From a virus (lineage: Duplodnaviria > Caudoviricetes): DNA of 64,000 nt. Position 1 is the stretch's first letter. The number at the start of each line of letters is the position of its first letter. The stretch spans positions 1 through 64,000 of IMG/VR virus record IMGVR_UViG_3300009095_000010; one strand, 5' to 3'. The position numbers were made by a program, and so were the translations under genes. A model generated the notes under the pieces. That model searched no databases. It was given only the letters and a program-made list of their open reading frames with translations, and was not told the DNA's origin. Positions 5,052 to 43,853 of the stretch are shown piece after piece.

Positions 5052-5825
5052 TCAATCTACAACATTTTCGGTTATTTTAATTGTAATAGTTCTTTCAACA
5101 GTTCGCTCACCATCTCTTCTTAGATTTTCACCACCAAAAATTGCATTAACAATAGACTCTTGTGTCGTCTTTGTCAGTGAATCTTTGACTAGTTGTTTAG
5201 GCTCATCCTCGTTCGCCCCTACCTCTTTGAGGTAGTTTGCTCTACCAACCAAATCTTCATCCTTCTTGATGATGCATTCAGATATTTTATCTTCAGAGTA
5301 TTTCTCCAAATTCTCCATAGATAATCTGTATCTAGCAAATATAAGCTGCTCTAAATAAGAAATTTGTGGGCGAAAAATATCAAGATCAGACTCCTTGACC
5401 CTTAGAATTCTAAATACATTATCATAGAGCTGTCTTGCGTAACTCTCAAACCACTCAGGTTCCTTACCAAGTTTCTTCTTAAGGTCCGTTAAAACTCTCG
5501 CTAATTTAGCAAATGCCTTGAGCTTTGATTCATCATCTTTATCAATGAACTCATCTGAACGATGCCAGTATTGAAGGTTCTTTCTTGGGTTTCTAGAACT
5601 TTCCTGATCAACCCTGCGGGTATCGAAAGCAAACTTTGTAATTGGTCCTGGAAGAACTTTCTCAAAAGCCGCAATTCTTGCCGACTGCTCCACACCCCTA
5701 TCCTCAGCTCTAGAAATAATAGAGTAAGTTCTAGATGCAGGCGCAGAACCAGTCTTTACACAATCAACATAGTCAGATGCAATCTTCTCGATTACTTTTA
5801 TTTTTGCGTCAATTGGTAAACTCAC
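5052..5825 (-). CDS. Hypothetical head-associated protein
   Basis: 257 aa with GGAG Shine-Dalgarno; immediately downstream of the capsid gene; carries a KIAS motif. Confidence 0.6.
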   Translation of the reverse strand: MSLPIDAKIKVIEKIASDYVDCVKTGSAPASRTYSIISRAEDRGVEQSARIAAFEKVLPGPITKFAFDTRRVDQESSRNPRKNLQYWHRSDEFIDKDDESKLKAFAKLARVLTDLKKKLGKEPEWFESYARQLYDNVFRILRVKESDLDIFRPQISYLEQLIFARYRLSMENLEKYSEDKISECIIKKDEDLVGRANYLKEVGANEDEPKQLVKDSLTKTTQESIVNAIFGGENLRRDGERTVERTITIKITENVVD

Positions 5826-5874
5826 AATTCTCCATATAACCCAAGCAGATACAAAGTAATGCTTAAGAATGCAT

Positions 5875-5903
5875 AAAAAAGGGGTAGCGAAAATCGCTAC
5901 CCC
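5875..5903 (-). terminator. Rho-independent terminator after the major capsid gene
   Basis: Perfect 10-bp stem GGGGTAGCGA/TCGCTACCCC followed by T6 on the - strand. Confidence 0.9.
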
Positions 5904-5928
5904 AATTTATCTATCTACCGAGTTGGAC

Positions 5929-6939
5929 TTAGCCAGCTACAACGCTCTTACGAGCTGCTGCAACACCGCGTGGGTTCACGATACCGATACCGATTTCCTC
6001 GGACACAACCCATCCAAGCTTGAGCTGCTTTGGCTCGTCTGCTGGGATAACTTCGATGTCCTGACGGATTGGCATAACACCAACGAACTCTGGGTCTGCT
6101 GCACCGTAAACGGTTCCTGGAGGAACGATCTTGGAAACCATGATGTCTGCGCCCCAGATGTGAGCGTAAAGACCGGTCTGGAGAATCTCACGCTGTGTAA
6201 CAGGATCGATCTCACCGCCGCCAGGTCCCTGACCACCGCCGGATCCCCAGTTGAGGATGTCGGTGAACTCAGTGATGTTCATGAAGTACTTCGTTGTTAC
6301 AAGGTCCCAACGATCAATCTGAGCCTTGATCTCAACGAGGTCTCTCTTGAGAAGACCACCATCAGAGATGTCCTGAAGAACGTTCTCAACAGATGCAGCA
6401 GCATCAACAGCAGCGAAGATGTTTGCATCTTCCTGTGCCATAAGCTCTTGGCGAGCTTTCTGCACTGCACGGTCGATTACGTTGAATCGACGACGACGTA
6501 CCTCAGAGATACGAACGGTTGGGTTGGAGTAAAGTTCGAATGTTGGAACTACGATTCTATCACCGAATACACGGGATTCACCGCCTGTACCGTTAGAAGA
6601 AATAACAGTAGCAGCAACATCGATATCTCTCTCGTACTTAGGATCAACACCCTGTGGGAGCGCGTCAACTACCAAAAGTCTACGTGCAATTCCTTGGTAG
6701 TCCAAGTTACGACGAATTGGGTTTGCCATTGCCTGAGCAAGAGCAAGCTTTCCTTCCTGTGTCATGATAGCGCGAGCAATCAACTCGTCGCGCTTCTCAT
6801 CGTTCAGCCCTGGCTGTCCAGCAAGTGCTGTGTTAGATGGCTGATTCTCTTCGAGAATCGAAGCGTATCTTACTAGTGTGTTCAATGCATCCTTTACGGA
6901 TGTGGCGTTCATTTCGCCCTGTGTAGTGAACAAAGACAT
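5929..6939 (-). CDS. Major capsid protein (HK97 fold)
   Basis: 336 aa; LAQAMANPIRRNLDY, FELYSNP, AQEDANIF, GLYAHIWGADI and EEIGIGIVNPRG motifs typical of large-phage MCPs; strong codon bias, GGAG SD and its own terminator. Confidence 0.9.
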   Translation of the reverse strand: MSLFTTQGEMNATSVKDALNTLVRYASILEENQPSNTALAGQPGLNDEKRDELIARAIMTQEGKLALAQAMANPIRRNLDYQGIARRLLVVDALPQGVDPKYERDIDVAATVISSNGTGGESRVFGDRIVVPTFELYSNPTVRISEVRRRRFNVIDRAVQKARQELMAQEDANIFAAVDAAASVENVLQDISDGGLLKRDLVEIKAQIDRWDLVTTKYFMNITEFTDILNWGSGGGQGPGGGEIDPVTQREILQTGLYAHIWGADIMVSKIVPPGTVYGAADPEFVGVMPIRQDIEVIPADEPKQLKLGWVVSEEIGIGIVNPRGVAAARKSVVAG

Positions 6940-7029: not shown

Positions 7030-7040
7030 CTTCAATCAGC

Positions 7041-16469: not shown

Positions 16470-16808
16470 TTATTCACTATCTTCAACCCCGTCCCCAGAG
16501 AGATCTATTCCTTCTAAATCTTCAGGGCTGAATCCGAAAAACATGAAAACCTTTTTAACTTCATCTTTGTTAGATTTCTTACTTTGTGGCTTTTTACCTT
16601 CAGCAAGTGACATCATCACTGCTGTAACTTCTTTCGCTCGCTCCGTTCGACCACAGCTTTCAAAACTTTGTGCCGCAGCATTAAGTTCTTCCATAGCTTG
16701 GAGAATCGAGAGACTATCGTGTTGCTCTTCTTGAACTACAGCATCAAGCTCTGCTTTCTGCATTCCCTCAAAAAGTTCTTGTTCAAAAGATGCTTGTTTC
16801 CAAATCAT
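16470..16808 (-). CDS. Hypothetical head protein
   Basis: 112 aa; begins MIWKQAS; contains the shared helical-hairpin module. Confidence 0.6.
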   Translation of the reverse strand: MIWKQASFEQELFEGMQKAELDAVVQEEQHDSLSILQAMEELNAAAQSFESCGRTERAKEVTAVMMSLAEGKKPQSKKSNKDEVKKVFMFFGFSPEDLEGIDLSGDGVEDSE

Positions 16809-18106: not shown

Positions 18107-21100
18107 TTAGAACTTAAGTCCTTTCTTGTTGAAGTAATCATCAAAGAAGCCCCTGATGTCTGATCCACCAGACTTCTGGAATTCAGAAGCAGATGGCAGA
18201 ATTACCTGACCGGACTCAAGAAGCCCTACTGTTGGTACGGAAGCTTTCTTGGACATTGACGGCTGCTTATCGAGCATTCTCTTGAATGAATCAAAACCAG
18301 CATCATTCCACTTCATGATATCACCAACTTGTGAATCAACCTGCGCCTCAGAAATAAGACCCTTAGAAACCATCTGGTTAGCAAGCTCATAAGCTCTCTT
18401 TACCTGACCTTTGTAAGAATTTAAATCCTCAGCCTGCTTTGCCTGTGTATGCTCTTGTGTAAGCTTGGTTGCAAACTCTGAAGACTCAGAATCTTTTGCC
18501 TCGCCCCACATTGCCTTCCAGTACTTGACAGCATCTGGATCAACATTGTGTGATACAAGCTGATCAACATCCTCTGCACGCATGCGACCTTCAGAAACAA
18601 GTCTCTGAATCATCTCTGCCTGCTTGCGAACGCGAGGAGCCATGTTTGCCAGATCCATCATAGAATCTTTTAGGTCCTTGTATACATGGAACGCGGAACC
18701 TGGAACTGTTGGTTTTACATCCAAATTACCTGCGTTGAAAGCATCAACACTTCCGCCTGGGTGAGCCTGATCGGATAGATCGTTGAACCCAAGAAGACCC
18801 TGCTGAGCCAGCTTGACACGAGCTGCTGCTCGTTCTGCCTTACTTGCAACGACTTTACCGTCTTTTAGCTCTCCCACCTTATCTCCTGATTCTGTTACAA
18901 CATCCAAGTCATCTGTATCTTCATCGGATGCTTTTTTAGCCTTTTTGTCCTCTTTGTCTTTCTTCTCGTCCTTCTTATCTTTCTTCTCTTCTTTCTTGTC
19001 CTTTTTATCATCTTTCTTTTCTTCTTCTTTCTTTGCCTTCTTGGCAAGGGACTCAACAAAAGCAGAGATTTCACTCTCAATATTGGAAGCGGTTGCTACC
19101 TTCTTTGGAGCGCTCTTATTTGTAGACGCACGCTTCTCAAGCTCTGCTGTTGCGTAAGCATACTTCACAACAGAATCCATAAGCTTGTTTGTATCGCTCA
19201 GCATTGCACGAGCATCCTTCACAGCATCAATTGTGAGGCTATTTACAGAGTCACGCTGCTCTTCTGTCAAAGAAGCATAAGCCTCTTTGTAAACTCTCTT
19301 TGCTGCTTTGAGTTCATGAACATGCTTTGCAAGAGTGATGATAGTCTCTTTAATTCCATCCTGAAGCATTGCATTTACACGCTTGCGCATACCCTGAAGC
19401 TGTGCAGCACTCTTTGGAAGCTCTCCGCCAGGAGCGAACTCCTCATCACCAGCAGGAGCAACACCTTCCAAATCTCCTGCGTCTTCAGCAACAGGACCAC
19501 TGACCTTGTCACGAAGATCGCTAAGCTTTCCTTCCATCTCATCAATAAGAGACTCAAGATCTTCAACGATTTCATCTGGCTCGCCAACTCCACCACCTAC
19601 ATCTTCTGGTGGCTCAAGAGCATCCATACCCGCTGGAGGTGCGGCGTCCATTGCTGGAGCAGCCGGAGGTGCAGCTGGCATTGGAGCCTGTGCGCTCTTT
19701 AGAAGGGCAGAAGCTGTTGCATGGAAACCCTCGCTCTGAATTCTGTTCAGAAGAGACTTACCAAAACGCTCTGTTGCCACAGCATCATATAGGGAGTCAG
19801 CATTACCTTTGGTAATCTGATCTACTGTTGCTGCGAGAATTGGCTTCTCATTTGCAAGAACAACCCAACGAGAAGCTGATCTGTCAATTCGACCATCTGG
19901 CTGTGCAACCTTCTCAAAACGAGCACGGAGAGATGCACGAGAAAGCATTTCCTTGGTCTTCATATCATCGCCATACAGACCCTCTACATCACCTACACCT
20001 GGGAAAGGTGCTGGTCCGTGAAGATTCTTATCATCAAGACGAGCCTTTTCATTCAAAGGATCTGGTTTGTATGTTGTTTGACCTGGCTTTGGATCTTCCG
20101 TTCCCAAGAGGTAAGCCTCTTTCTTGTTCTGCTTGAGCTGCTCTTTTGCTTTCTTGAGAGCTGCTTCGCGGAACATTGCGCGTTCGTGCTCACTAGCAAG
20201 ACGCTGCAAATCCTTCTTTGTCTGCTCGTCACCTGGGTAAGATCCTTCAATATCACCCACACCTGGGAAAGGTGATGGTCCATGTAGGTTCTTGTCCATC
20301 ATACGGGCCTTCTCATTCAAAGGATCGACTGGGTACTGTTTCTGTCCCGGTTTTGGTTCCTCTGTGCCTAGATAATATGCTTCTTTTGTCGTCATGGTTG
20401 GTTCCTCATTACTTGTAGAAAGTCTATGTAGATTCTCCTGTAGGCTAGCTAGTTTCGTTTGTGCTCCCAAAATTGCCCTTTGAAGCTCTGAGGCATAAGT
20501 TGGGAACGCCTCAGGAGCATTTACCTGTGTCGATGAATTGTGGCTAACCTCGCTCTCCATCGACCATCTTGAGTGAGTCGGACCAACCGCATCACTCTCA
20601 TCATTTTTATCACTAGCTATCTCACCGGCAATTGACTGAATTCTCTCGGTAAGACTCGTTAGGTCTTTCTTGATAGATTCCAAATCTTGCGTAGAAACTT
20701 CTTTGGCTGCTTCTTTGAGTTGCAAATAATCCGAAAGCAATGCTGCTGCCTTCTCTATATCAGAGGCAATAATATGCTTTACCTTTGCTTTCGGATCTGC
20801 TCCGGAAACAACCAGAGAAAGTTCAATTGGAGATAGATCTAGGTTAATTTCGCCATAACAGCTCTTGGCTCTCATGTGATGGCAGAAATCCCTCTCGGTT
20901 CTAGCAACTGTGTGACAGTCTGTACAAACAGCACGACCAACAGCAGTACCCATAGATACATTGTTGGCCACTCCAGTTTTAACCTTGTCAGCAAGATCTC
21001 CGTAATTCTTCGCATCCAGTGCGCACAAAGCTATAACTCTTTTGCGCCTGTCATCGTAAACGGTATCTACAATAACGCCTCGAATTTTATCAACCGATTG

Positions 21101-21508
21101 AGATTGATGATCGAGGCATAGTGGGCGACCAACCCAATTCTTGTAAGCTACCTTTAATTCTGACTCTGGAAAGATGTCACGATTGTTATTTCTATAAGGT
21201 TGGATGCGCGGATCATTGCATGTCCACTTTATACCCTCGCCTACCTTCTCCCAGGTGGCAGAAACATCTTCACCATTTGATAGCTTTTTTGGAGTGCCAT
21301 CATCGTTAATGCATGAAGCTTCCGCTGCGTGCATCATAACACAAGTAAAATACAAAAAGTCTTTTGCCTGAGGAGCAATAACCTTTAACTCCTGAGCAAA
21401 CTTACGCATGCGGTTTTCAATGTTCAAATCAAAATCACCAGCAAGCTTATCTATTGGCTGTATATCTTCTGGTCTAATAGAAACTGCTTCACCTAATTTG
21501 ATTAGCAT
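18107..21508 (-). CDS. Prohead protease fused to a long scaffold protein
   Basis: N-terminal HK97/herpes-type serine protease features (LCLDH...IRGVIVD...VSMG...PIELSLV) with a CxxC...CxH Zn insert; then ~850 aa of coiled-coil, repeat and charged sequence. Confidence 0.8.
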   Translation of the reverse strand: MLIKLGEAVSIRPEDIQPIDKLAGDFDLNIENRMRKFAQELKVIAPQAKDFLYFTCVMMHAAEASCINDDGTPKKLSNGEDVSATWEKVGEGIKWTCNDPRIQPYRNNNRDIFPESELKVAYKNWVGRPLCLDHQSQSVDKIRGVIVDTVYDDRRKRVIALCALDAKNYGDLADKVKTGVANNVSMGTAVGRAVCTDCHTVARTERDFCHHMRAKSCYGEINLDLSPIELSLVVSGADPKAKVKHIIASDIEKAAALLSDYLQLKEAAKEVSTQDLESIKKDLTSLTERIQSIAGEIASDKNDESDAVGPTHSRWSMESEVSHNSSTQVNAPEAFPTYASELQRAILGAQTKLASLQENLHRLSTSNEEPTMTTKEAYYLGTEEPKPGQKQYPVDPLNEKARMMDKNLHGPSPFPGVGDIEGSYPGDEQTKKDLQRLASEHERAMFREAALKKAKEQLKQNKKEAYLLGTEDPKPGQTTYKPDPLNEKARLDDKNLHGPAPFPGVGDVEGLYGDDMKTKEMLSRASLRARFEKVAQPDGRIDRSASRWVVLANEKPILAATVDQITKGNADSLYDAVATERFGKSLLNRIQSEGFHATASALLKSAQAPMPAAPPAAPAMDAAPPAGMDALEPPEDVGGGVGEPDEIVEDLESLIDEMEGKLSDLRDKVSGPVAEDAGDLEGVAPAGDEEFAPGGELPKSAAQLQGMRKRVNAMLQDGIKETIITLAKHVHELKAAKRVYKEAYASLTEEQRDSVNSLTIDAVKDARAMLSDTNKLMDSVVKYAYATAELEKRASTNKSAPKKVATASNIESEISAFVESLAKKAKKEEEKKDDKKDKKEEKKDKKDEKKDKEDKKAKKASDEDTDDLDVVTESGDKVGELKDGKVVASKAERAAARVKLAQQGLLGFNDLSDQAHPGGSVDAFNAGNLDVKPTVPGSAFHVYKDLKDSMMDLANMAPRVRKQAEMIQRLVSEGRMRAEDVDQLVSHNVDPDAVKYWKAMWGEAKDSESSEFATKLTQEHTQAKQAEDLNSYKGQVKRAYELANQMVSKGLISEAQVDSQVGDIMKWNDAGFDSFKRMLDKQPSMSKKASVPTVGLLESGQVILPSASEFQKSGGSDIRGFFDDYFNKKGLKF

Positions 21509-21686: not shown

Positions 21687-22310
21687 TTACATGTTTTGTA
21701 ACGCCTTCTGTCTCTCTTTGAATAACTGAACTACAAGAGGTGAGCTTTCCTGAAGGGGTTCATCATTATCTGAAAGATCTTTCGCCCAATCTTTTGCCAA
21801 AATATTACTGTCTATATGATCCATAACCCTATCAGTAATTAATTGACGCATCTGGCTGACCTGTTTCTTAATAGAGTCAATTGTAGAGATCAGATAATTA
21901 CGAAATTCCTGGCTACTTAGATTCGAAAATATTGACACAAATGTATCAATATATTTTTCAAGTTCTCTAATCGAACCAATAAAAGAGTTCATAAGCTCTT
22001 CTGTAGCTGTATCCGTGCTAAATTCGTTCATCAACGATATGGTTTGGTATGACTTTTTTGTGATGTCTTCGAACTTCTTTTTGACCTGATCCCTATATTC
22101 TCGGAACGTTTTTCTGTATTCAGTTACCATTTCCATATCCACATTTTGATATTTGGAAAAAGGAACATAAATAAGATCAAGGTATTCAATAGCTTCCTGC
22201 ATCATAACAACGAGCTGCTCAAGATACTCTTCCGCCTTTTCCGCAACTCTTTTCTCAGAGTCAGGTACATCAAAGTTCATTTGTATTGAATAAGCTTTTT
22301 TATCAACCAT
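21687..22310 (-). CDS. Hypothetical helical head protein
   Basis: 207 aa; starts MVDKKAY. Confidence 0.65.
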   Translation of the reverse strand: MVDKKAYSIQMNFDVPDSEKRVAEKAEEYLEQLVVMMQEAIEYLDLIYVPFSKYQNVDMEMVTEYRKTFREYRDQVKKKFEDITKKSYQTISLMNEFSTDTATEELMNSFIGSIRELEKYIDTFVSIFSNLSSQEFRNYLISTIDSIKKQVSQMRQLITDRVMDHIDSNILAKDWAKDLSDNDEPLQESSPLVVQLFKERQKALQNM

Positions 22311-26725: not shown

Positions 26726-28687
26726 TTATGGAGCCGGAGGCGCTTGTGGTTTTGGACCACCGCCACCACCAATTGGCGATGGTGGTGGCGCTCCTGGTAA
26801 CTTCAGACCGCCACCACCAATTGGCGATGGTGGTGGCGGTGGTGGTAACTTCAGACCGCCACCACCTGGACCCGGACCCATTGGCCCACCCGGAAGACCG
26901 CCCGCTGGAGCCCCTCCTGATTGATCAAGAGGCTCATATGGGCTCTGTCCTGGTACTGGTTCATCAGCAACCTCCTCAATCTCATCGCCCGGTCCAAGAG
27001 ATTTAAGTTCATGAATACTGTACCTTGACATTGCCATAATTTCACGAGTACGAATAGCATCTTGAATATCTTCGTAACGAATCTTTCTCTGTTCTTCCTC
27101 ATATTCTAAACCAAGAGAACGATACAAAGTTTGAATAGAAACTCTTTTCTGTACACCCTCACCTTGAGAAAGATTTACCATGTTATTGATGTAAGAATCC
27201 ATGTCGAATAGAGACATGTGGTTCCAATCAACTTCAGGAACAATCAATTGCTTCTCACCATCAACGTACTCATAGAAGTCATTAATCTGTGAAATTGGAG
27301 CAAAAATTTTACGCTTCAACCAGCTCGTCATCATCTGACGGAACTGCATATACCTTTGACGCAAAACATCGAGAGCAACAGAACCTGTCGCGTACGTTGT
27401 GTCCGAACCATCCATGATAACTGATGGTACCATGAGACCAATGTAAATCTCTTTGATAAGCTGCTGTACATCATTAGAGGTATCATAAATACCCTGACCA
27501 TAACCAACACGATCTACTGTTACAGCATCATGAGTAAAAATCTTGAAATCCTTATCATACTGAGCTTCCTCGAAAACATTTCTCCAATGCTCCAGATCTA
27601 TTGGTGATGGACGAAACTCTTGGTTACCAATCTTTACCAAAGTAAGAGGGTTAACCATGTTATCTGCCTGTGCATACTTAGATTCGCGCAATTTATCCCA
27701 CAACATCAAAGCTCGGAAACAAGACACAATCAAACCTGTTCCTCGAATCTCATAAGGGGAAATTCTTCTTGCCATATGATGAACATAGAAGTTATTGAGT
27801 GGAATATTCTCATTGCGAAGAACATGCTCCACAATGCTTGGATCTAATTGCTTTCTTTGCTGGATATCAGATGGTTGATTGCCATTGACAACTCTTCTAA
27901 GGTTCTCATCCGGCCTCAAGGAAATGATTGGCTCAGCAGCAATAACAGAACGCTGAACGTTTACATAGTCTGGGTTTAGAATCATAAGACGAGACCACTT
28001 ACCCTTAGACTCATCAAGTTCAGCATAAATGAAAGCCTCTCCAAGAATCCAAAACTCTTGCGCCGCAAGAACTGCCATATTCATCAAATCAATTTCTTCA
28101 ATCATTTGAGAGAAAAACTTTTCCACTTTAGGATTCTTTGATTTGATATTTAGTTTTGCAATTGGATATGTTGAATGAAGTGTAATTGCATTATGTACAA
28201 TTGGATTTAGTGCAAAGAATGATCTTGACCACGCATTGATTGTGGGTCTGTCACGAGGTAGGTTGAGGTTTGAGTTCAACCATAGAGGTGAGTACACCTC
28301 TGGTAACTGTCGAGAAGAATCATTCGAGCCTCTCCAACCAGACCCTCCAGAAGATACGTTTCCAACACCAGAGGCCATTTTATAAAGACCCTTGCCATTG
28401 TGAGATACAACACCAGCTTGTGTTTGTATCATTCGTATCTTTCCCTTATCACTCTGAGAATTACTTGAGTACCCAGAGCCTTGCTCTCGGAACTCACCAG
28501 CTTCTAATTGAAGCTCCATGATTTCTCTGCGCTCATCTGATACAGCTCTAGCCATTCGGTTTGTGACCTCAGGAGTTCCAGCTATTGCCGCTCTCTTCTT
28601 GATCAACTCCTCTGCACGAGCACGTCTATTTCTGTTTTGTTCTAACAGCTCTTCAGCTCGTGTTTTATCATTGTTGATATCTACCAT
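26726..28687 (-). CDS. Portal protein
   Basis: Directly downstream of TerL; NPIVHNAI...EFWILGEAF...ILNPDYV...RGTGLI...IYIGLMVPS...LKRKIFAPI portal-type motifs; Pro/Gly-rich C-tail. Confidence 0.85.
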   Translation of the reverse strand: MVDINNDKTRAEELLEQNRNRRARAEELIKKRAAIAGTPEVTNRMARAVSDERREIMELQLEAGEFREQGSGYSSNSQSDKGKIRMIQTQAGVVSHNGKGLYKMASGVGNVSSGGSGWRGSNDSSRQLPEVYSPLWLNSNLNLPRDRPTINAWSRSFFALNPIVHNAITLHSTYPIAKLNIKSKNPKVEKFFSQMIEEIDLMNMAVLAAQEFWILGEAFIYAELDESKGKWSRLMILNPDYVNVQRSVIAAEPIISLRPDENLRRVVNGNQPSDIQQRKQLDPSIVEHVLRNENIPLNNFYVHHMARRISPYEIRGTGLIVSCFRALMLWDKLRESKYAQADNMVNPLTLVKIGNQEFRPSPIDLEHWRNVFEEAQYDKDFKIFTHDAVTVDRVGYGQGIYDTSNDVQQLIKEIYIGLMVPSVIMDGSDTTYATGSVALDVLRQRYMQFRQMMTSWLKRKIFAPISQINDFYEYVDGEKQLIVPEVDWNHMSLFDMDSYINNMVNLSQGEGVQKRVSIQTLYRSLGLEYEEEQRKIRYEDIQDAIRTREIMAMSRYSIHELKSLGPGDEIEEVADEPVPGQSPYEPLDQSGGAPAGGLPGGPMGPGPGGGGLKLPPPPPPSPIGGGGLKLPGAPPPSPIGGGGGPKPQAPPAP

Positions 28688-32643: not shown

Positions 32644-33495
32644 TTATCCTCTGTACTGAGCTGACCAATCAAAGTTATCGTTACGCCAAATCTCAACTGG
32701 TGTACCTGGAGGATATCCGCGATCCTGCATCATTGGGTAACCCATATCAGCGAGAAGCTGTGAAAGCTCGGCCTGTTCACGCTTGTCTAAACTATATTCC
32801 TCAACCTGACGATGATACATATCTTCGATATCATGACCGGCCGAAACCATTCCATTGATACAAACACGAGCAATACGTGAAATCAAAAGAGGAACGGTAA
32901 TAGTAATTCCATTGATTCTTGTAGCCTTTTGAGCGTTCTTTACAAGACCAGATTCCTCTGCCCAAGACTTGGATTTCTTACCCTTCTTGAACTTCTCTGT
33001 CCTGATCTTTTCTAGACGATCAATCAAACGTTCCAGACCATTTTCAATTTGCTCTCTTGCCTTCTCAGCTTGAGCCGAATCAATTTGATTCTTGTAGTCT
33101 GTACGCATTGCTTTTGTAATCTCTTTATCCAAAGCCTCAAAATAAGAGATGGCTTTTTCTAAACCAGTAGAGTCATAACCAGAGTGCTTAGGAATGTTAT
33201 CGAACATTTTCTGAAGCCAAGCAAGGAAGCCAGAAGGTTCCCACCTCCACATGTCAGGCTCGTCAGCATCAACCTCTACAGCTTGATCTTCATCGTTGGT
33301 TACAATGATTTCTTTTGCATCCGGAGCGCCTGGAATATCATCAAGAAAAAAGACAATTTCATCTGGTTCGTCACTAGATACTTCTATGTTATCACCAACC
33401 TCAAGAGGTGGAAATTCACCATCCATTACAGGCAGCAAAAACTCCCCGAGATTCAAATCTCCTATATCTGTATTCTGCGCATGTTTCTCTACCAT
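32644..33495 (-). CDS. Hypothetical head protein
   Basis: 283 aa; starts MVEKHAQ; internal VKNAQ. Confidence 0.65.
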   Translation of the reverse strand: MVEKHAQNTDIGDLNLGEFLLPVMDGEFPPLEVGDNIEVSSDEPDEIVFFLDDIPGAPDAKEIIVTNDEDQAVEVDADEPDMWRWEPSGFLAWLQKMFDNIPKHSGYDSTGLEKAISYFEALDKEITKAMRTDYKNQIDSAQAEKAREQIENGLERLIDRLEKIRTEKFKKGKKSKSWAEESGLVKNAQKATRINGITITVPLLISRIARVCINGMVSAGHDIEDMYHRQVEEYSLDKREQAELSQLLADMGYPMMQDRGYPPGTPVEIWRNDNFDWSAQYRG

Positions 33496-33519: not shown

Positions 33520-34053
33520 TTATTCCGAAGTATTCGTATATTTTGGGCCTTTTACAATTTCATCTGCGGCCATTTTGATAAACTCAGCTATTGCTGCACC
33601 TTGTAATGAATATGTTCCGAAATAAAGATTCCTACTAACATTATAATCGGAATAGAATCCAACAGGATATGTATATAACCCATTGATTGAATCTGTGAAA
33701 ACCTTCGCGTAAAATGGGGATGTATTCAATGATTGAGCCGGGCCCTGGCCGGGAGCTGTATCATTATAGTTACACTCAACAGCCTCTTTTTCCTGAAGGA
33801 TATGTCCAGCATAGGGACATACCGAGGGCTCCTCAGTAGACCTGAGAAGATTCCAAGCCAGCAATTTAGTATTCGCAGAACCAATCTGCTCCTTCTCTTC
33901 ATCAGAAGCTTCTTCGCCCATAATATCCAGTGGAGCCATTCTTTCCACGTTCTTTCCCGCATACCTACAACCAAAAGGAATAGGTAGACCGAAAGGACAA
34001 GGAGAATCATTGTTCTTACGAATCTCTGCTAGCTTGAGATGAACCTTGGTCAT
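33520..34053 (-). CDS. Cys-containing hypothetical protein
   Basis: CPFGLPIPFGC...CPYA...VEC motif; 177 aa. Confidence 0.6.
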   Translation of the reverse strand: MTKVHLKLAEIRKNNDSPCPFGLPIPFGCRYAGKNVERMAPLDIMGEEASDEEKEQIGSANTKLLAWNLLRSTEEPSVCPYAGHILQEKEAVECNYNDTAPGQGPAQSLNTSPFYAKVFTDSINGLYTYPVGFYSDYNVSRNLYFGTYSLQGAAIAEFIKMAADEIVKGPKYTNTSE

Positions 34054-34391
34054 TTCTTTGAGGCCTCAAAAAACACAGATGAAAATCTAGAAATCAAATC
34101 AATCTTACTCTCTGCGTACGTCTGAGTCTGAGAATTTCTATCAAGCTTCTCATTCTCTTTTTTCTTCTTGTTACGAAAGTCTTTTACAGATTTATACTTA
34201 TCCATACGGCCATGATACAAGCCCCCACCAGGAGATATCTCACTTGCCTCTTCGTTTGTATAATCATAGTTCCTAAAAAGAACATGCTTTCTAGTATCTC
34301 TATCCTGCCTCTCTTTTGGAGTGGCTGTATCTTTTTGTCCCTCGTCCTTATCAGGATCAGAGGTTCCTTGATAATAAGCTTTCTTTGTCAT
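34050..34391 (-). CDS. Hypothetical head protein
   Basis: 113 aa; starts MTKKAYYQGT, similar to the scaffold repeat TTKEAYYLGT. Confidence 0.6.
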   Translation of the reverse strand: MTKKAYYQGTSDPDKDEGQKDTATPKERQDRDTRKHVLFRNYDYTNEEASEISPGGGLYHGRMDKYKSVKDFRNKKKKENEKLDRNSQTQTYAESKIDLISRFSSVFFEASKK

Positions 34392-35128: not shown

Positions 35129-35131
35129 CTA

Positions 35132-37099
35132 TCACCTTGTCTGAATTGCTGGTTGTTTTTCTACGCGAGAGACAGGTTCCCTAATCTCAACCTCTGGTAC
35201 CTTTCCATCTGCGACAGGAGCTGTGTTAGGACCCGATTGACCTTGCTGCATCTTTGCAAGATCTTTCTGCTTACGCATTTCCTTACGTTGCTCTTCCTGG
35301 TCCTCTTCTTGTTGCAGCCTATTTCTAATACCAGCTGTAGCTGGGTTGTCTTGCCTTGGAGTATCAACCCACTCTGTAGCTGAAGGAACATTAACAGAAC
35401 CCTTGAGCTTACCAAGAATCTCTTCTAGACGATTGCCAATATACTGATTACCCTCAAGAGCCTTACCCATTGCTTCACCGAGCTGTGGGAAGAATGAAGC
35501 AAGTCCTAGACGGTCCATCATAATATCAAGGAATGCTAACTGTCTTGATATTTCACGTTGGTTGTAAATACTAACTAGCATCTCTAGTCTGCGAATAACA
35601 TTTTGAACTGTGATGCTATTTAGAGCCGCATCAATTACTTCATCTGTGTTGTCGTTAGGAATGACCTGTCCTTCTGGACCGTCAATCTCTACGCTTGCCG
35701 GCTTCGCAGGAGCTGCTGGCTTTAGCGGCTGCTGTCTTGGAGGTAGCTGAGCTTGCTTCCAAATACCCGAACCGATTTTGAGGTATTCATCAAAAGCAGA
35801 TGCAGCTTTACCATCTTCAGATAGTTCTGGTTCTTGAACTTCCTCTGAAACCGCAACCTCTGGTGCTGGTGAAGGAACTGGAGCCGGTTGTACTTGGTTT
35901 TGTGCCTCCTCTTGTTCCAACTTCTCTCTCTCTTCTGGAGTATCATCCTTGTCATTGACACCACGCTTGAGATTATCAAAGAACTCTCTGAGAAGTTCTT
36001 CTGTCTCCTTCTTATCTCCGGAAGGTGCTGGAGTTAGAGAATCCCCACCAGAATCATCTGTTGGACCACCAAACAACCCACCAGCGCCTCCGCCTGGAGG
36101 TGCTCCTAGTGGAGGAAGCTGAGCAATCTTGAAAAAGAAACCAGCAGCTTTATTCTTTCCCTGGAACCTAAGCTGGTTCGCTGTTCTAAAAATATGATCT
36201 TCAAATAGTGATGACTTTACAGTTAGTTTGTTTGCAGTCTGAATTCTTCTCTTCAAATCCTGTAGAAGCTTCAGCATCAACTCTTGATCTTCACCAGCAA
36301 ACAATTGACCGTCCATAGATGCAAGCATTTTCTCTGCGGAGTTCAAACGAGAAATAATCTTGGATCTCTGTGTCTCAATCTTATCACGCACATCACTAAC
36401 ATCGTTTGTAGATTGCGGAAGATTCTGTGGAAGTCCCGGAGGAACTCTGTTGTAACCAAAACCAGAAGGAGCTGGTAGGACAGCTTTCAAAGAATTCGCT
36501 GGCACCCCAGCCAACATCAATTCAGAATTGAATGAAGCTAGCTTTGGATATTTCTCTGGTGTTTTTTCTTTGTAGAATTTTACCCACTGATCATAATCCA
36601 TTTTTTCCCTTTTATCCCACGAACCCAAAACAATCTGTCGAGCCTCCTGCTCTGAATGACCTTTTGCTACCAATGAGTATATCTTATGAGTAGCAGATAC
36701 CCATCTGGTCAGGTCATATCTAGGAAGCTCTAGACGGCTGTTTGGTTGCGGGTAGGCAATTTTAGGTCTAATATCAAAAGGCATCATCTTCTTTAATGCC
36801 AAATCAATAGCTTCTATTAGCCCTAAAAGTGTATCTATTGGTATTTTTTCTTTGTTTCTAAACACTTCCGCAGCTATTGCTAGAGCGGTTTTATTATTTA
36901 GTACTATATCAAATATAGATTTAGCTACCTGTGGAACATGGTTTAATATCATGAAGAATTTGTTTTGGTCTTCATCATTATCAACACCAACAGATGACAT
37001 CGTCATATATTCTGATTCAAGATCTTTCTTAATATTATCTGGTAAGAGATCACAATAACTTGAATCTAATTGATTCTGAAGATGTTTACTCATCGTCAT
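35132..37099 (-). CDS. Large hypothetical head protein
   Basis: Probable start at 37099 (GGAGG SD); domains separated by KIAY, KLAS, KIAQ and KQAQ plus Pro-rich linkers. Confidence 0.65.
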   Translation of the reverse strand: MTMSKHLQNQLDSSYCDLLPDNIKKDLESEYMTMSSVGVDNDEDQNKFFMILNHVPQVAKSIFDIVLNNKTALAIAAEVFRNKEKIPIDTLLGLIEAIDLALKKMMPFDIRPKIAYPQPNSRLELPRYDLTRWVSATHKIYSLVAKGHSEQEARQIVLGSWDKREKMDYDQWVKFYKEKTPEKYPKLASFNSELMLAGVPANSLKAVLPAPSGFGYNRVPPGLPQNLPQSTNDVSDVRDKIETQRSKIISRLNSAEKMLASMDGQLFAGEDQELMLKLLQDLKRRIQTANKLTVKSSLFEDHIFRTANQLRFQGKNKAAGFFFKIAQLPPLGAPPGGGAGGLFGGPTDDSGGDSLTPAPSGDKKETEELLREFFDNLKRGVNDKDDTPEEREKLEQEEAQNQVQPAPVPSPAPEVAVSEEVQEPELSEDGKAASAFDEYLKIGSGIWKQAQLPPRQQPLKPAAPAKPASVEIDGPEGQVIPNDNTDEVIDAALNSITVQNVIRRLEMLVSIYNQREISRQLAFLDIMMDRLGLASFFPQLGEAMGKALEGNQYIGNRLEEILGKLKGSVNVPSATEWVDTPRQDNPATAGIRNRLQQEEDQEEQRKEMRKQKDLAKMQQGQSGPNTAPVADGKVPEVEIREPVSRVEKQPAIQTR

Positions 37100-37880
37100 T
37101 GTTATCCTCCTCTTCATCAAAGACTTCTTCAGAAACCTCTCTATCAAAATCCTCAACCTTTTCATTGAGTTTAGCTAAAGATTCTTTTTCTCTTGTAATC
37201 TCTTTTTGTGTTGGTACAGGATTTATATCTTTAGGATTCAACCTTTGCATCTCTTCATTTAATAAGTCCATAAACAAAGAGGTATAATCCGGACCAAGAC
37301 GTTCAAGTACTCGGCGGATTGCTTCTTGAAAAGCAACGGATTGCTGCTCAACCATTTGAACAGTGTACGTGTGCTCTATACGTACATCAGGACGATCATT
37401 CTTGATCTTGTCCGCCTTCTCCAAAGCGGCCATTAAGAGTTCCATGTACTTTGTGAATATATAATCTGCCTTTCGAGTATCTTCAGGATCACCCTGAATC
37501 ATATCGAAAATCTGCTCAGCTCTCGTTTCAAGAATTGTAATAACGTTATTCAGTCTTTCTATGTAGTTAATCTCTTTATTAACTCCATCCAGAACACGTT
37601 CTTTCCAAGCACGATTGTCAAGAAGTGATTCCTTGATTTGCTTATCAAGTTTTGAATCTGTATCACGCTGAACAATTTTCTTTACGTAACCATGATGATC
37701 TGCATACGTATCCAAAAACTCCTGCAACGTTGTTGCAGGAATTCTTAGATGATTCTCGTCTGGTCCGGGGTATTTGTCCTTTAGATATTTAGATACGAGT
37801 TTAGAACTATCTCCGCTTACTAGCTTCGATATAATAGTTTCCTTCTCTGGATGATCTATAATTTTCTTGAAATCGGACAT
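37086..37880 (-). CDS. Hypothetical protein, possible terminase small subunit
   Basis: N-terminal HTH-like DHPEKETIISKLVSG...VSKYL, helical core and acidic tail; position in the packaging region only. Confidence 0.35.
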   Translation of the reverse strand: MSDFKKIIDHPEKETIISKLVSGDSSKLVSKYLKDKYPGPDENHLRIPATTLQEFLDTYADHHGYVKKIVQRDTDSKLDKQIKESLLDNRAWKERVLDGVNKEINYIERLNNVITILETRAEQIFDMIQGDPEDTRKADYIFTKYMELLMAALEKADKIKNDRPDVRIEHTYTVQMVEQQSVAFQEAIRRVLERLGPDYTSLFMDLLNEEMQRLNPKDINPVPTQKEITREKESLAKLNEKVEDFDREVSEEVFDEEEDNNDDE

Positions 37881-40800: not shown

Positions 40801-41609
40801 CGGCAAACCTGAATTGCTGCTGCAATCTGCTCGCCCATTGCATACTTCTTGAGGTGATTGAAATCATCACTAGCAAATCTATTGTTGATAGACTCACGAG
40901 TCTCAAACAAAGAAGCTCCCTGATTTCGAACATCACCGAAATCTCTTGTCTGATATTCTACAGCTCCACCAGGAACTTCATTACCCTTCTGTGTTTTGTA
41001 TCCAGCTTTGTAATCATAAATGATACCAGTCACAATATCCTGATAAACATGATCAGTGATACGTGTCATCTGTCCGCCTGGACGATCTGGTGGGTAACGT
41101 GTCTGAAGAGGTGCCTCAAGAGGAACATACTTCTTTACTTGCTGAGCCACTGCCTTTGCTTGCTCTTTCTGATTGTGCATAGCCGCATGAGCCTGAGCAG
41201 GCTTCTGATAAGCTTCCTCCCTTCTTAGCCTACGACGTTCTTCACGAAGACGAGTAATCTCATCATCATAAACTTTTCTAGATTCTAAAGCAGCAGTCTT
41301 TGGAGCTGCAATCGAAAGTAGAAGTTCGTCCAGAACAGATGCCTGCTTCTTGAGTAGCGGATCACCACTCTCATCAAAAGCAGAAGCGAGAGCAGCTATC
41401 TCATTGAGCTGCTGCTCAGTGATACTAAACTCTGCATGCTTATCCATGTCATCGGCAACTTCCTCCAATAACGTAGATGCAGCAGCAATTGCAGTAGCTA
41501 CTTTTTCAAAAACCTCTGGTCCTTTGCTTGAAGCTCGAACAAGCAAATCATCAGAGTTCTTCTCTAGTCTAGAAGCTAGAACTCTCAAATCTATTGAAAC
41601 AGACATCAT
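37899..41609 (-). CDS. Large hypothetical (putative internal head) protein
   Basis: 1236 aa; helical-hairpin module, internal repeat IAxAxxxxxxxAPxLLxGA, several KxA motifs in the N-terminal third. Confidence 0.65.
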   Translation of the reverse strand: MMSVSIDLRVLASRLEKNSDDLLVRASSKGPEVFEKVATAIAAASTLLEEVADDMDKHAEFSITEQQLNEIAALASAFDESGDPLLKKQASVLDELLLSIAAPKTAALESRKVYDDEITRLREERRRLRREEAYQKPAQAHAAMHNQKEQAKAVAQQVKKYVPLEAPLQTRYPPDRPGGQMTRITDHVYQDIVTGIIYDYKAGYKTQKGNEVPGGAVEYQTRDFGDVRNQGASLFETRESINNRFASDDFNHLKKYAMGEQIAAAIQVCRDAAPDLLEGALDCAYDDGLSTTEVANILVDSLDQYKGASSDKVDQILKAAGDNFGNLKKAQGASNIAVALSTIQELAPHLLKGAVAKAKKAGLDDYQIKYVLSSDFVTKFDNPGDELKIAKEIILPQLRSLGWDDLVSTHLKALARMGVDKNQLAKVARSSSPLKKNSKLNSLAKILKESQLREFEFEGDPNLDIELELDEPQESGLELAVQPEISPAPTGFPSFLSPKAPQVQPAPEVQEPKVEEAVKPESKPSFLKKEVEPKTGPVTPFSNPGLWGSAYDMALEEVMDKKKGWSFMRLLNKENSDGTPKYTEKQKLLMTMERINQIMKNNGFVGAYEKADIPEGDDAGYKPTEFGYVTNKDVFEYKNKHKKSVHEKVEELGKIEEPSPNEVASFEGEPTTKNSVVNWPKYMESTGVNITDEAAEKIDGEIAKMWPEQFAKYKTLFNKFEFGTTKEMPQFNKLPLPVQEKLKTMFFLKEKTPAILEKYPMMLAEVFATRDADEKLRYAENLGGEEGEKLKSEAIYISDLIQSEDPILLKMYKEKIEKYTLSEDVMSKMRSYVLSSGSAREAENMLKDIRTAVFKNTIDRALTQNNLPSFFKEEIPTLTDFAEKLESLGKKTSVVKQERKKNELRKKNEAPKKLIDIPTDENGEELIPIWDMGQPYMEALVEAYKEFPPDLEMSEGSKWPTDLNSPERDEFMKDRGFVPPSAKVIAGRVSINNLISSMDGVWKSLGKGEDGKYKGKALEYSTDPIVDTGNFKTLFTNPEEYLRAYVNAKKQNPFERTEIPKEFAQITVSEPEDMPYVSDAVKVKIADLVGNGVRDDNIIDVMSNPATNGVGRAISVEYLKPIISWMKSNKNLQGMIWSMALKGKSAEDVMSVVSEKYPGAQIKPGVIEFFIDRVRESMARQVESNKKIDEAMEAEGFFPPNKELIGNKSTADILKQKGRKNPYQDLIGLRSMTDMQ

Positions 41610-41614
41610 TCTCC

Positions 41615-43150
41615 TTATGCGCCTTCTGGAAAGAAAATCTTATGAGTCATGAACTGTGGTGTGTCATGAACTGGTTGAGAAGCTAGACGCCGCATTGATT
41701 GATGCTCACTCTCATAAGGGTCTTGCTTGCCAGTCTCACAACCCATGTTCATCATCATATGAGCAATAGCAACTCTTTGTGCGTGTGGGTCAACCTCACC
41801 AAGAACATTGATTGCATCCTCAGCTCTGAGATAATTACCCTCAGCAACAGACTCTTTCACAACGTCAAGAAGCTCGGTTGGCTTCATTCCGTAGCAAGGA
41901 GATGCAGTTGCAAGCGCTCTCTTGTTTCCACCCAGGCCAGATTTTACAACCTCATCGATTGCACTCTTGCTAAATGCAGTTACCGCATCGTTAGCAAAAA
42001 CAACCTTTGGTGGCAGAATCATATTGCCAGTAACTTCAACAGGTACCTTGAGCCCAGTTCCAACACCGATAGCTACGGCATAGAAAACCTTACCCTCTTC
42101 AACGTCTGCAACCTTGACCTGTACTGAGCCATAGCCCATCTCAGAAAACTTGCGAACAAGCATAGAGCGGCCAGCCTCAACGACGCGGTCACCATGAATG
42201 AATCTTGCTATACCATCTGGCTTACCAAGAGTTTCAGCAAACTTGCTTTCTTCTGTGGCTGCCATCTTTGGCAGCTGAATATCAGCATGTGGATCTTCCA
42301 TCTGTGCATAGAGCAAAGAATTCTGATCGATTGCTGGTGTTCCAGTTTCAGAAGCGACCTTGATAGCTGCAAGCTCTACTTCGTTGACGATACTCTCTGA
42401 GCCCTTCTTGACACGTTCAAGCACATCGAGAAGTCTAGAACCATCTACACGGAAGGACTTTCCAGCTGTATTTATAATGTGTTTCTGGTAGGCTTGCTTA
42501 CCAAGATCCTCAAAGCCCGCTCTAGAAAGGAAGAGACTTGGAAGAATGGCCTTACCTTCTCTCAACTCTACAGGGATAAGAGCAAAAGCTGTTCCTTTTG
42601 GGGTTTCGTGAGAAGCCTGGACAATGATCAGATCTTGGCGACCGGCAAATGTAGTGATGTCCTTTGGCTCAATTCCAATTCCAATTAGCTGAGCATAAGC
42701 AGCTCTTTGTGCTTTTTGTGAATCAGTTGCACTGTAAATCTGCTCTCTAGGGGTTGCTGCAAAAGCACCACTTAGTGCATTAGAAAGAATTGGGTCTGCA
42801 AATTTAGCGTAGTCCCGATCCAGAGGCATTCCTTCATTGGAGTCACGAACAAATGTCTGTGGCTTGCGTTCAGCTTGCTTACCAAGCTCTTCAGCAAAAA
42901 CAGAAGAGAGCTTTGAATGAGACGCGCTGAATCGCTCAACAACCTGACGAAGCTCATCTTTGGAGATGAATGTTTGGTTAGAAGCCATCTTTGTTAGGAC
43001 CTGAGATGCGTTGATAAGAGCCGTATCTGTTGGTCTGGCTTGTGCTTCACGACGTGCCTTTGCAGCAACAATAGGAAGGGCAAGCTTTTCGTTTGCTTCG
43101 ACAGCAGCCGCTGCCTTTTGAATCAATGAACTAATCTCTTGAATATCCAT
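41615..43150 (-). CDS. Hypothetical virion protein with two similar alpha/beta domains
   Basis: Probable start MDIQEI at 43150; LIPVELREGKAILP and LKVPVEVTGNMILP repeats. Confidence 0.65.
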   Translation of the reverse strand: MDIQEISSLIQKAAAAVEANEKLALPIVAAKARREAQARPTDTALINASQVLTKMASNQTFISKDELRQVVERFSASHSKLSSVFAEELGKQAERKPQTFVRDSNEGMPLDRDYAKFADPILSNALSGAFAATPREQIYSATDSQKAQRAAYAQLIGIGIEPKDITTFAGRQDLIIVQASHETPKGTAFALIPVELREGKAILPSLFLSRAGFEDLGKQAYQKHIINTAGKSFRVDGSRLLDVLERVKKGSESIVNEVELAAIKVASETGTPAIDQNSLLYAQMEDPHADIQLPKMAATEESKFAETLGKPDGIARFIHGDRVVEAGRSMLVRKFSEMGYGSVQVKVADVEEGKVFYAVAIGVGTGLKVPVEVTGNMILPPKVVFANDAVTAFSKSAIDEVVKSGLGGNKRALATASPCYGMKPTELLDVVKESVAEGNYLRAEDAINVLGEVDPHAQRVAIAHMMMNMGCETGKQDPYESEHQSMRRLASQPVHDTPQFMTHKIFFPEGA

Positions 43151-43160
43151 AACTTTTCCC

Positions 43161-43853
43161 TTATTTCCCACGCTTGATGTTTGTGTTTGCAGCATTAGCA
43201 ACCAATTGCTTTATGACCCCTTCAAGCTTGGCTCTTGATATCTGCTTCTCATCATAAAGATTTAATAACTCTGATACCATGCTATCCACCTCCGCATCGT
43301 CATAATCCATATTATGATTAGGTGCTTCTTGAGGAATTTCATGATCTTCATAAGCCTCAATACCATTAAAGTCAGCAACCTTCCTTAGCTCAGGAAAGCG
43401 CTGACAAATAAGTTCACGAGAACGACCCGCCACCTTGGAGAATATTTCTTTCTGAAGAGACTCATCATTTGCCAATTTCTTTGGTAACCACCTACGTGCA
43501 ATATTGAATTCAGTTTCCGGAATACCCATATCACTAGAAGACAGAGAAACAAGAGGTTCGCCTTTGTAATAAATGTGCATAGCACTCTTATCCGGAAGCG
43601 CATCCCAATCATTCTTTTCATTATTAGACTCTACAGCAAGACCGCCGTCCTCTCCATATAGAGCTACAATAACAGGACCATCGGAACCATCTTGAATCTT
43701 CCATAGCTGCTCGGTGTCTTCGTTATCTCTAAAACGAACTAGGTCATAAGCAACCTTTTCAATACGATTCTGAACATCTGCTAGACGATACGAGCGCTGA
43801 GGAAGTAACGTCTGAGAAAGATTATCAAAGTTAACTGTGAACTTATCCTTCAT
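43161..43853 (-). CDS. Hypothetical protein, first gene of the morphogenesis unit
   Basis: 230 aa; GGAG SD; follows a terminator; EKVAY and RKVAD motifs. Confidence 0.65.
   Translation of the reverse strand: MKDKFTVNFDNLSQTLLPQRSYRLADVQNRIEKVAYDLVRFRDNEDTEQLWKIQDGSDGPVIVALYGEDGGLAVESNNEKNDWDALPDKSAMHIYYKGEPLVSLSSSDMGIPETEFNIARRWLPKKLANDESLQKEIFSKVAGRSRELICQRFPELRKVADFNGIEAYEDHEIPQEAPNHNMDYDDAEVDSMVSELLNLYDEKQISRAKLEGVIKQLVANAANTNIKRGK

Follow-up and report, generated by a model that had tools for sequence, protein, structure and literature searches.

We analysed the first 64 kb of the 124,337-bp IMG/VR viral contig IMGVR_UViG_3300009095_000010 (positions 1 to 64,000, hereafter the window) and found that the 35 proteins encoded at 5052-43853, referred to here as the head module, are strongly enriched in a short directional motif, consisting of a hydrophobic residue at P5, Lys at P3 and Ala at P1, followed by Ser, Gln or Tyr at P1'. 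The motif is densest in the product of a single open reading frame (ORF) of 1133 amino acids (aa), in which a head maturation protease is fused to a scaffold, and judged from the sequence it is probably the cleavage signal of this fused prohead protease, the enzyme of the phage itself. The window represents the module for head morphogenesis of an uncultured megaphage resembling phage G; CheckV estimates the contig to be ~29% complete, giving a genome of roughly 430 kb. The closest cultured relative is Bacillus/Lysinibacillus phage G (Donellivirus gee), with 54% identity in the major capsid protein (MCP) and 28% in the protease.

A head-maturation code of the form [KR]-x-A↓[QSYA] (the arrow marking the candidate bond) had been proposed earlier from this DNA, with about 20 matches in the protease-scaffold against roughly 3 expected. 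All motif strings quoted in that original prediction are present in the ORFs named for them, and the count was reproduced closely, as [KR].A[QSYA] (each dot standing for any residue) occurs 21 times in the 1133-aa ORF against 4.3 expected (z=8.3), the expected count being that of 2000 composition-preserving shuffles. Over the whole head module the same pattern was found 76 times against 29.8 expected (z=8.9), and in the non-head ORFs of the window 18 times against 13.2. A tighter pattern, K.A[QSY], hereafter the strict site, was enriched about four-fold in the head module (45 against 11.6, z=10) and remained in excess when the protease ORF was left out (31 against 10). In contrast, 13 strict sites were counted where about 17 were expected in the roughly 25,700 aa of non-head protein encoded on this contig, with 0 against 0.6 at 1-5050, 4 against 4.4 at 43987-64000 and 9 against 12 at 64-124 kb; the enrichment over shuffles and over the region 43987-64000, proposed as a check of the code, was thus borne out.

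The same pattern emerged when all gapped tri- and tetrapeptide patterns were scanned without bias: K.A. ranked second in the head module, and K.AS, K.AQ and K.AY were all among its top 20 and all absent from the non-head list. The reversed pattern [QSY]A.K showed no excess in the head module (7 against 11), and the permuted patterns A.K[QSY], KA.[QSY], K..A[QSY], KA[QSY] and K.[QSY]A were all at expectation there. The forward motif, on the other hand, stayed enriched when shuffles were confined to 15-aa windows so that local composition was kept (45 against 11.1, z=10.8). Since reversed and permuted motifs are flat and the forward motif is enriched even under local shuffling, composition, helical periodicity and low complexity could be excluded as its source. 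The contexts of the 45 sites are heterogeneous except for K-x-A-Y-[YL]-[LQ]-G-T, which is seen three times, and because of this heterogeneity we rejected a longer shared module of which the motif would be one part.

Several details of the code changed under this analysis. Arg at P3 is not enriched in the head module (R.A[QSY], 10 against 7), so that the [KR] first proposed reduces to Lys. At P1', Ala and Gly are mildly enriched (24 against 13), whereas Glu/Asp, Lys/Arg, Thr/Asn and hydrophobic residues, each checked in the head module, are not; neither are Gly or Ser at P1. Extending the strict site to P5 sharpened it considerably, as [ILVFMY].K.A[QSY] was found 27 times in the head module against 3.2 expected (z=14), compared to 6 against 5.3 outside. 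An alternation of P5, P3 and P1 would suit a substrate bound as an extended strand. The figure of about 25 motif-bearing head proteins was an over-count, since 19 of the 35 have a strict site (8.5 expected by chance), and about half of the individual matches listed at first are expected by chance or not conserved, examples being KKAS at residue 858 of the scaffold, the sites at 453 and 488 of ORF 35132-37165 and three of the four strict sites of ORF 37899-41609; the head-specific excess as such stands.

Conservation in homologues follows the motif positions. Eleven protease-scaffold homologues (61-71% identity) carry 9-14 strict sites each, where about 1.6 would be expected, and in a nine-sequence alignment the identity to the window residue was 0.86 at P3, 0.82 at P1 and 0.68 at P1', compared to 0.56 at P2, 0.56 at P4 and 0.43 at P2'. 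For Lys residues, conservation was 0.86 within the motif and 0.58 for the remaining 100 (p=0.001). The other head proteins, compared with four related genomes, gave a similar profile at a lower level (P3 0.65, P1 0.71 and P1' 0.59, against 0.40 at P2 and 0.42 at P4), and both Lys (0.65 in the motif, 0.45 outside it; p=0.0015) and Ala (0.71 and 0.53; p=0.005) are better retained when they belong to the motif, in agreement with the positional conservation that the original prediction had asked to see. In these four genomes the non-protease head proteins have 20-36 sites each against 8-9 expected, and about half of these sites fall at alignment columns without a strict site in the window, which argues that the excess is maintained through turnover and not merely inherited.

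The 1133-aa ORF itself contains 14 strict sites, with P1 at residues 38, 121, 354, 377, 465, 535, 606, 743, 784, 794, 860, 901, 1039 and 1089. Its protease part, placed at residues ~107-215 by PHROG annotation, was recognised by the profile phrog_18299, 'head maturation protease', which matches aa 114-215 (E 2.5e-15), and an AlphaFold2 (AF2) model of aa 1-330 shows a protease core with a predicted local distance difference test (pLDDT) score of 85-94. In Foldseek the assemblin/gp21 family occupied the top 34 rows, with T4 gp21 (5jbl) as the top match (probability 1.0, E 9.5e-4) and eight different herpesvirus proteases next. Superposition by VIA-align gave moderate Z values, 9.6 to gp21 (132 aa, 3.0 A), 9.5 to the varicella-zoster virus protease, 9.0 to that of pseudorabies virus (PrV) and 7-9.5 over the herpesvirus proteases. 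A Pfam scan of aa 1-330 at E<=10 left S77, S78, S21 and U35 unmatched and returned spurious coiled-coil matches only, and a PDB sequence search gave no genuine match; because these sequence searches yielded nothing real, the family placement rests on PHROGs and the fold, and on the model the domain is a divergent member of the assemblin-fold prohead proteases.

The candidate catalytic residues (Table 1) were taken from an alignment of 25 homologues of the N-terminal 330 residues (40-82% identity). The Ser of V-S-M-G, singled out in the original prediction for mutation to Ala, held up well, being invariant in these homologues and lying in a domain of the assemblin/gp21 fold. Between this Ser and the end of the protease fold we observed an invariant cluster of C195, C198 and C209, followed by a further His/Cys (aa 195-209; 20882-20926, minus strand), which phage G gp19 has in common with all 25 homologues. 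The cluster may represent a zinc-binding insertion; to our knowledge, an insertion of this kind is not known from T4 gp21 or assemblin.

Strict sites bracket the catalytic domain. The candidate propeptide release site directly N-terminal to the fold has a Lys (K36) that is near-invariant even in distant protease homologues, and R-K-F-A↓Q, with P1 at residue 38, aligns with V-K-T-A↓A (aa 45) of phage G gp19. Beyond the protease fold the ORF is predicted to be helical or disordered, and here four sites are fully conserved (Table 1). A tandem duplication of ~88 aa in scaffold residues ~375-535 (19901-20386, minus strand) accounts for two K-E-A-Y sites. Its copies start K-E-A-Y-[YL]-L-G-T-E-[ED]-P-K-P-G-Q and contain D-P-L-N-E-K-A-R...F-P-G-V-G-D, and ORF 34050-34391 opens in a similar manner (K-K-A-Y-Y-Q-G-T-S-D-P); the duplicated unit may be a repeated module that binds MCP or portal. 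In addition, a nested start is a candidate at codon 372, where GAGGA-N7-ATG (20393-20412, minus strand) precedes K-E-A↓Y with P1 at 377, and Met at this codon is found in seven of nine aligned homologues. Judged from the sequence, use of this start would give a free scaffold of 762 aa, comparable to lambda C/Nu3 and herpesvirus UL26.5. A complex prediction of protease aa 39-250 with MCP residues 1-50 gave no answer (score 0.01, mark 0.32) and speaks neither for nor against the cleavage reading.

In proteins other than the scaffold, sites concentrate in the N-terminal tenth, and 8 of 31 lie within the first 40 aa. A strict site occurs within the first nine residues of 5 of the 35 head proteins and of none of 122 other ORFs (Fisher p=4e-4), and most of these five leader starts are preceded by a purine-rich ribosome-binding site. 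Of the leaders listed in the original prediction, five are confirmed by position, to differing degrees: M-T-K-K-A↓Y is partly kept in homologues, the homologues of M-I-W-K-Q-A↓S mostly have Gly at P1, suggesting that P1 Gly may be tolerated at this leader, and the sixth, M-K-K-F-A↓T of ORF 16805, is weak. In the MCP, residues 22-27 read L-[VA]-K-Y-A-[AS] in nearly all of 80 homologues, whereas the window has Arg at P3, and phage G MCP gp27 is without this N-terminal segment (41 residues), starting 15 aa downstream of the candidate site. The portal site closely precedes the conserved core of that protein, and its aligned counterpart in phage G gp14 is R-K-M-A↓S (aa 57).

Among the larger head proteins, ORF 35132-37165 has its conserved sites at K-I-A↓Y (P1 137), K-L-A (P1 210), K-I-A↓Q (P1 348) and K-Q-A↓Q (P1 472). 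The original prediction had placed the sites of this protein at apparent domain borders and read such proteins as polyproteins. In an AF2 model built from a 5-sequence alignment, which is a poor model (mean pLDDT 49), all six sites fall in low-pLDDT segments, a result with a chance probability of about 0.03 given that such segments make up 56% of the protein; five of the six lie outside helices in this poor model, which is not significant. Sites in linker-like, mostly non-helical regions are therefore what remains of both proposals, with weak weight for domain borders, and the polyprotein idea has these low-confidence regions and nothing else in its favour. One related genome has a homologue of this ORF (G005:C1:42594-44537) with one in-frame TAG inside the match, for which a sequencing error, gene breakage or stop-codon recoding are candidate causes.

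Table 1. Features of the window discussed in the text (aa, amino acids; the arrow marks the candidate bond; P1 numbers are residues of the respective ORF).
Feature	Coordinates	Strand	Basis and conservation
Protease-scaffold fusion gene, 1133 aa, 14 strict K.A[QSY] sites	18107..21508	-	PHROG; 14 against 1.7 expected
Protease catalytic domain (aa ~39-250), assemblin/T4 gp21 fold	20759..21394	-	AF2 model, structural matches
His134 codon, candidate catalytic His (P-L-C-L-D-H)	21107..21109	-	Kept in at least 90% of 25 homologues; role inferred from family
Ser185 codon, candidate catalytic Ser (V-S-M-G)	20954..20956	-	Invariant in 25/25 homologues; role inferred from family
K-F-A↓Q, aa 36-39, directly N-terminal to protease fold; candidate propeptide release site	21392..21403	-	Kept in 6/8 close homologues
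Scaffold sites K-L-A↓S (P1 354) and K-E-A↓Y (P1 377)	20375..20455	-	Each in 8/8 homologues; P2 varies among E/N/T/R
C-terminal scaffold sites K-R-A↓Y (P1 1039) and K-K-A↓S (P1 1089)	18239..18400	-	Each in 8/8 homologues; P2 varies
Leader M-S-T-D-K-Y-A↓Q, ORF 25478-26683	26660..26671	-	K-E-A-Q in 8/8 homologues, overall identity just 24-41%
Leader M-V-D-K-K-A↓Y, ORF 21687-22310	22290..22301	-	[KR]-x-A-Y in 7/8 homologues
Leader M-V-E-K-H-A↓Q, ORF 32644-33495	33475..33486	-	K-x-A-[QY] in 4/4 related genomes
Leader M-T-K-K-A↓Y-Y-Q-G-T, ORF 34050-34391, resembling scaffold-repeat start	34374..34385	-	Partly conserved: MKRKAY, VKKQSY
Leader M-I-W-K-Q-A↓S, ORF 16470-16808	16788..16799	-	Homologues mostly K-x-G-S
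MCP N-terminal candidate R-Y-A↓S, aa 24-27 of ORF 5929-6939	6859..6870	-	Would remove a 26-aa propeptide
Portal candidate Y-K-M-A↓S, P1 aa 105 of ORF 26726-28687	28370..28381	-	Kept in 3/4 related genomes
677-aa head protein, family unknown, six strict sites	35132..37165	-	Four conserved
528-aa head protein; L-T-K-M-A↓S (P1 73) and A-I-K-V-A↓S (P1 283)	41615..43201	-	Both in 4/4 related genomes
L-K-K-Q-A↓S (P1 aa 90) in 1236-aa ORF 37899-41609	41337..41348	-	Identical in 4/4 related genomes
Major capsid protein (MCP)	5929-6939	-	PHROG, E 1e-78
Portal	26726-28687	-	PHROG
Large terminase (TerL), intein-containing	28702-31611	-	PHROG

The motif is common to relatives of the window phage. A scan of viral contigs with a profile of the protease alignment returned 80 loci, of which 42 (47-62% protease identity) were analysed; the fusion ORF is about 1120-1290 aa long in the 40 of these where it could be measured. 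K.A[QSY] was found 597 times over the 42 loci compared to 190 for its reverse, with the forward motif ahead in 41 loci and tied in one, and over 40 loci the P5-extended motif was found 320 times against 63 expected and 78 reversed. Within the first nine residues the motif is present in 34 of 636 ORFs (40 loci), against 0 for the reversed control, and after K-x-A the relatives prefer Gln (2.4x), Ser (1.8x), Trp (1.7x) and Tyr (1.5x) at P1'. In phage G, whose protease is far more distant, gp2-gp28 contain 20 copies of K.A[SA] against 4.9 expected (z=7) with the reverse at expectation, while about 20,000 aa taken from other parts of its genome contain 11 against 8.6, and gp19 has K-V-A↓S (aa 250) and K-I-A↓S (aa 276) immediately C-terminal to its catalytic domain. 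Related MCP loci in IMG/VR number more than 230, and related protease loci about 300, on contigs of up to 480 kb.

Two further observations were made in these relatives. In two of the phages an intein bearing a LAGLIDADG homing endonuclease interrupts the protease-scaffold gene immediately N-terminal to the catalytic domain (L008:9886-11028, plus strand; same place in L012; Intein_splicing E 1.4e-13, LAGLIDADG_3 E 2e-14), making the gene product 1492 aa compared to ~1133. The gene of a head-maturation protease seems an unusual place for an intein. In phage G, the small head proteins gp5, gp9, gp12, gp13, gp17 and gp20 (phage G 3934-12203) share a basic R-L-[IK]-K-like N-terminus, possibly a distinct leader or targeting element that they have in common.

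With regard to the genomic setting, nearly all genes of the window are on the minus strand, and PHROG profiles identified four head genes, those of MCP, portal, TerL and the head-maturation protease domain. Their order on the minus strand is TerL, portal, protease-scaffold and MCP, placing the protease gene between those of portal and MCP, as is the case for assemblin-fold prohead proteases. Another 20 ORFs, of which 19 lie in the head module, were annotated with PHROGs and gave nearly no matches beyond two, a weak head-decoration match for ORF 7041-7739 and a nucleotidyltransferase-like match for ORF 34388-35128. The intein of the TerL protein (969 aa) includes a LAGLIDADG endonuclease (Pfam matches to LAGLIDADG_3 and Hom_end, aa ~391-464), and several relatives align to TerL only from residue ~534 on. 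The unbiased pattern scan also revealed an excess of the tripeptide D-G-Y in non-head ORFs (16 against 1.6 expected), mainly in putative outer virion or fibre proteins at the start of the window (1-5044) and otherwise scattered.

Taken together, the motif is head-specific, directional and conserved, is concentrated in the protease-scaffold and at N-termini, and is common to relatives including phage G, and for these reasons we favour the core of the original prediction, a protease cutting after Ala and a large set of head proteins made as precursors. This fits all of the computational evidence once P3 is restricted to Lys, although we infer from sequence that cleavage takes place, that the bond after Ala is cut, that the fused protease is the enzyme and which individual sites are used. 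In such a mechanism the fused protease would co-assemble with the scaffold in the prohead and bind its substrate in extended-strand form, the side chains of P5, P3 and P1 all on the same face, and it would cut after the Ala of hydrophobic-x-Lys-x-Ala where Ser, Gln or Tyr, or less often Ala or Gly, occupies P1'. It would free itself from its 38-residue N-terminal segment and from the scaffold, which would be chopped into fragments of roughly 10-140 residues able to leave the shell. The MCP would be trimmed by 26 residues and the portal by about 105, and roughly ten further internal head proteins would lose leaders of 5-7 residues or longer N-terminal or linker segments.

A number of points weigh against this interpretation. 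Chance would account for about one in four strict matches, several of the matches lack conservation, and some homologous positions have Gly or Ser at P1 and Lys shifted by one register (849, 16470), showing that the rule is not strict. The conserved K-V-A-Y with P1 at 121 is part of the protease fold, where its role is probably structural and not that of a cleavage site, and the position of the cut bond cannot be read from the motif alone. Leaders of 5-7 residues would also be shorter than any documented prohead-protease propeptide that we know of, T4 gp24 and the internal proteins of T4 losing about 10 residues. Finally, in the literature covered, to which the virion mass spectrometry study of phage G did not belong, we found no mature N-terminus, peptide or gel shift for phage G.

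Other explanations have to be considered for the same pattern. A non-proteolytic docking motif, which by binding scaffold, the inner MCP surface or portal would target cargo into the prohead and itself stay uncut, would be just as head-specific, directional and conserved, and the very short N-terminal leaders look like targeting tags, as the capsid-targeting sequence of T4 is an N-terminal tag. However, docking would need neither 14 copies in the scaffold nor the sites on both sides of the protease fold that are present in the window and in phage G, and an alternating P5/P3/P1 pattern with a P1' preference would be typical of protease subsites. We consider uncut docking unlikely, and since the T4 targeting sequence ends in a protease site, docking and cleavage are not exclusive. 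If the motif is cut, a host protease or a second phage protease could also be responsible. In staphylococcal phage 80alpha, capsid and scaffold proteins have short N-terminal leaders trimmed off by the host protease Prp, substrates that the leaders of the window recall, and phage G encodes a zinc peptidase (gp2) beside its head genes. Yet in 42 divergent phages with probably varied hosts the motif accompanies the protease-scaffold gene, it is densest in the protease-scaffold itself, where it brackets the catalytic domain, and it does not resemble the Prp site, which has hydrophobic residues and Phe-Phe before Ala; nor was a second protease seen among the PHROG-annotated head-module ORFs. An enzyme other than the fused protease is accordingly quite improbable.

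It is also conceivable that the motif has no function and reflects composition, helical periodicity, repeats, shared ancestry or its own post hoc definition, as it was originally chosen by eye, two of its K-E-A-Y sites derive from an internal duplication with a third similar module opening ORF 34050, and counts in related homologues are not independent. This is very hard to reconcile with an unbiased scan that returns the same pattern, with reversed and permuted controls, local shuffles and non-head proteins that are flat, with P2 and P4 varying freely while P3 and P1 are held, with an excess that persists through site turnover and with the presence of the signal in phage G, whose protease is just 28% identical. 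Equally hard to credit is a role of the conserved Lys as a target of covalent modification or cross-linking in the head, such as the isopeptide bond of the HK97 capsid. Lys is indeed the most specifically required residue, Arg not being accepted, but no modifying enzyme was identified among the PHROG-annotated head-module ORFs, and sites 5-7 residues from the start of a protein, or abundant in a scaffold that must exit the capsid, would be unfit for a structural cross-link.

Which portions of dozens of virion proteins persist in the mature particle depends on prohead proteases, whose specificities are known for few cultured phages. If cleavage at the motif is true, the Lys/Ala rule would allow the boundaries of mature virion and ejection proteins to be annotated across hundreds of uncultured megaphage genomes, and roughly 20 window proteins of unknown family would be flagged as head-internal cargo. 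The signal in phage G makes the prediction testable in a cultured system. We further speculated that an N-terminal hydrophobic-x-Lys-x-Ala, such as M-T-K-K-A↓Y or M-V-E-K-H-A↓Q, is a minimal tag for both capsid targeting and cleavage throughout the clade, and that the Ala/Ser preference, the fusion and the nested gene are ancestral features held in common with assemblin and not convergent ones; this extension is doubtful at present, and if true, the tag would define the proteins loaded into and processed in the heads of the whole megaphage clade.

In T4, phiKZ and SPN3US, one head protease recognising a motif of 3-5 residues acts on the MCP, portal and scaffold as well as on many internal proteins, in most cases to remove an N-terminal propeptide, and redundant sites are present inside propeptides (PMC9026906, PMC10052503); it cuts after Glu, at L/I-x-E in T4, S/A-x-E in phiKZ and A-x-E in SPN3US (PMC9026906, PMC7411985). 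The window protease has its fold in common with T4 gp21, phiKZ gp175 and SPN3US gp245, T4 gp21 being the best match, and the candidate sites are placed as documented for these phages, with the highest density in the scaffold and others on either side of the protease fold and at the N-termini of MCP and portal. In contrast to these three, the window motif has Ala at P1 and Lys at P3, with information at P5 and P1', and the protease is fused to a scaffold of ~880 aa. Glu-type motifs were not in excess in the head proteins of the window ([LI].E 139 against 129, [SAG].E 188 against 203, A.E 91 against 79), a weak test given how frequent such motifs are. The giant-phage prohead protease specificities that we found described all cut after Glu, and in a literature search that did not extend to phage G virion mass spectrometry, a K-x-A specificity was not found described for the prohead protease of any phage, nor was a cleavage motif of any kind for phage G or its relatives.

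Proteases of the HK97 gp4, lambda C-Nu3 and P2 gpO types (MEROPS S78, S49) are serine proteases encoded between the portal and MCP genes, several of them fused to or nested with the scaffold, and they process few substrates. Gene position and the link to the scaffold are as in the window, whereas the window protease has no Pfam S78/S77 match even at the permissive threshold used here, and we know of no K-x-A rule for these types. Phage G shows the same directional excess, in the form K-x-A-[SA], in its head module and has homologous sites in protease gp19 and portal gp14. Its gp19, on the other hand, is a stand-alone protease of 300 aa with separate gp20 and gp21, compared to the fused protease of the window, and its P1' residue is mostly Ser or Ala, compared to Ser, Gln or Tyr.

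Herpesvirus assemblin is fused at the N-terminus of a scaffold, releases itself by autoproteolysis and is accompanied by a nested in-frame scaffold gene, and PrV assemblin ends in Ala225 (PMC4498786). Like assemblin (pUL26/UL26.5, MEROPS S21), the window protease is fused N-terminally to a scaffold in one ORF, and the motif has Ala at P1 and, in part, Ser at P1' in common with it; beyond these residues and the gene layout the likeness goes no further. The assemblin consensus is (V/L/I)-x-A↓S, and the corresponding [VLI].AS is not in excess in the head proteins of the window (11 against 13.6), where the determinants are Lys at P3 and a hydrophobic residue at P5 and where P1' also takes Gln and Tyr. 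Whereas herpesviruses have 2-3 sites in one polyprotein, the window has dozens of candidate sites in about 20 proteins. In conclusion, if the cleavage reading is true, the fused protease and its motif would be the closest phage parallel so far to the Ala↓Ser specificity of assemblin and to the UL26/UL26.5 layout.

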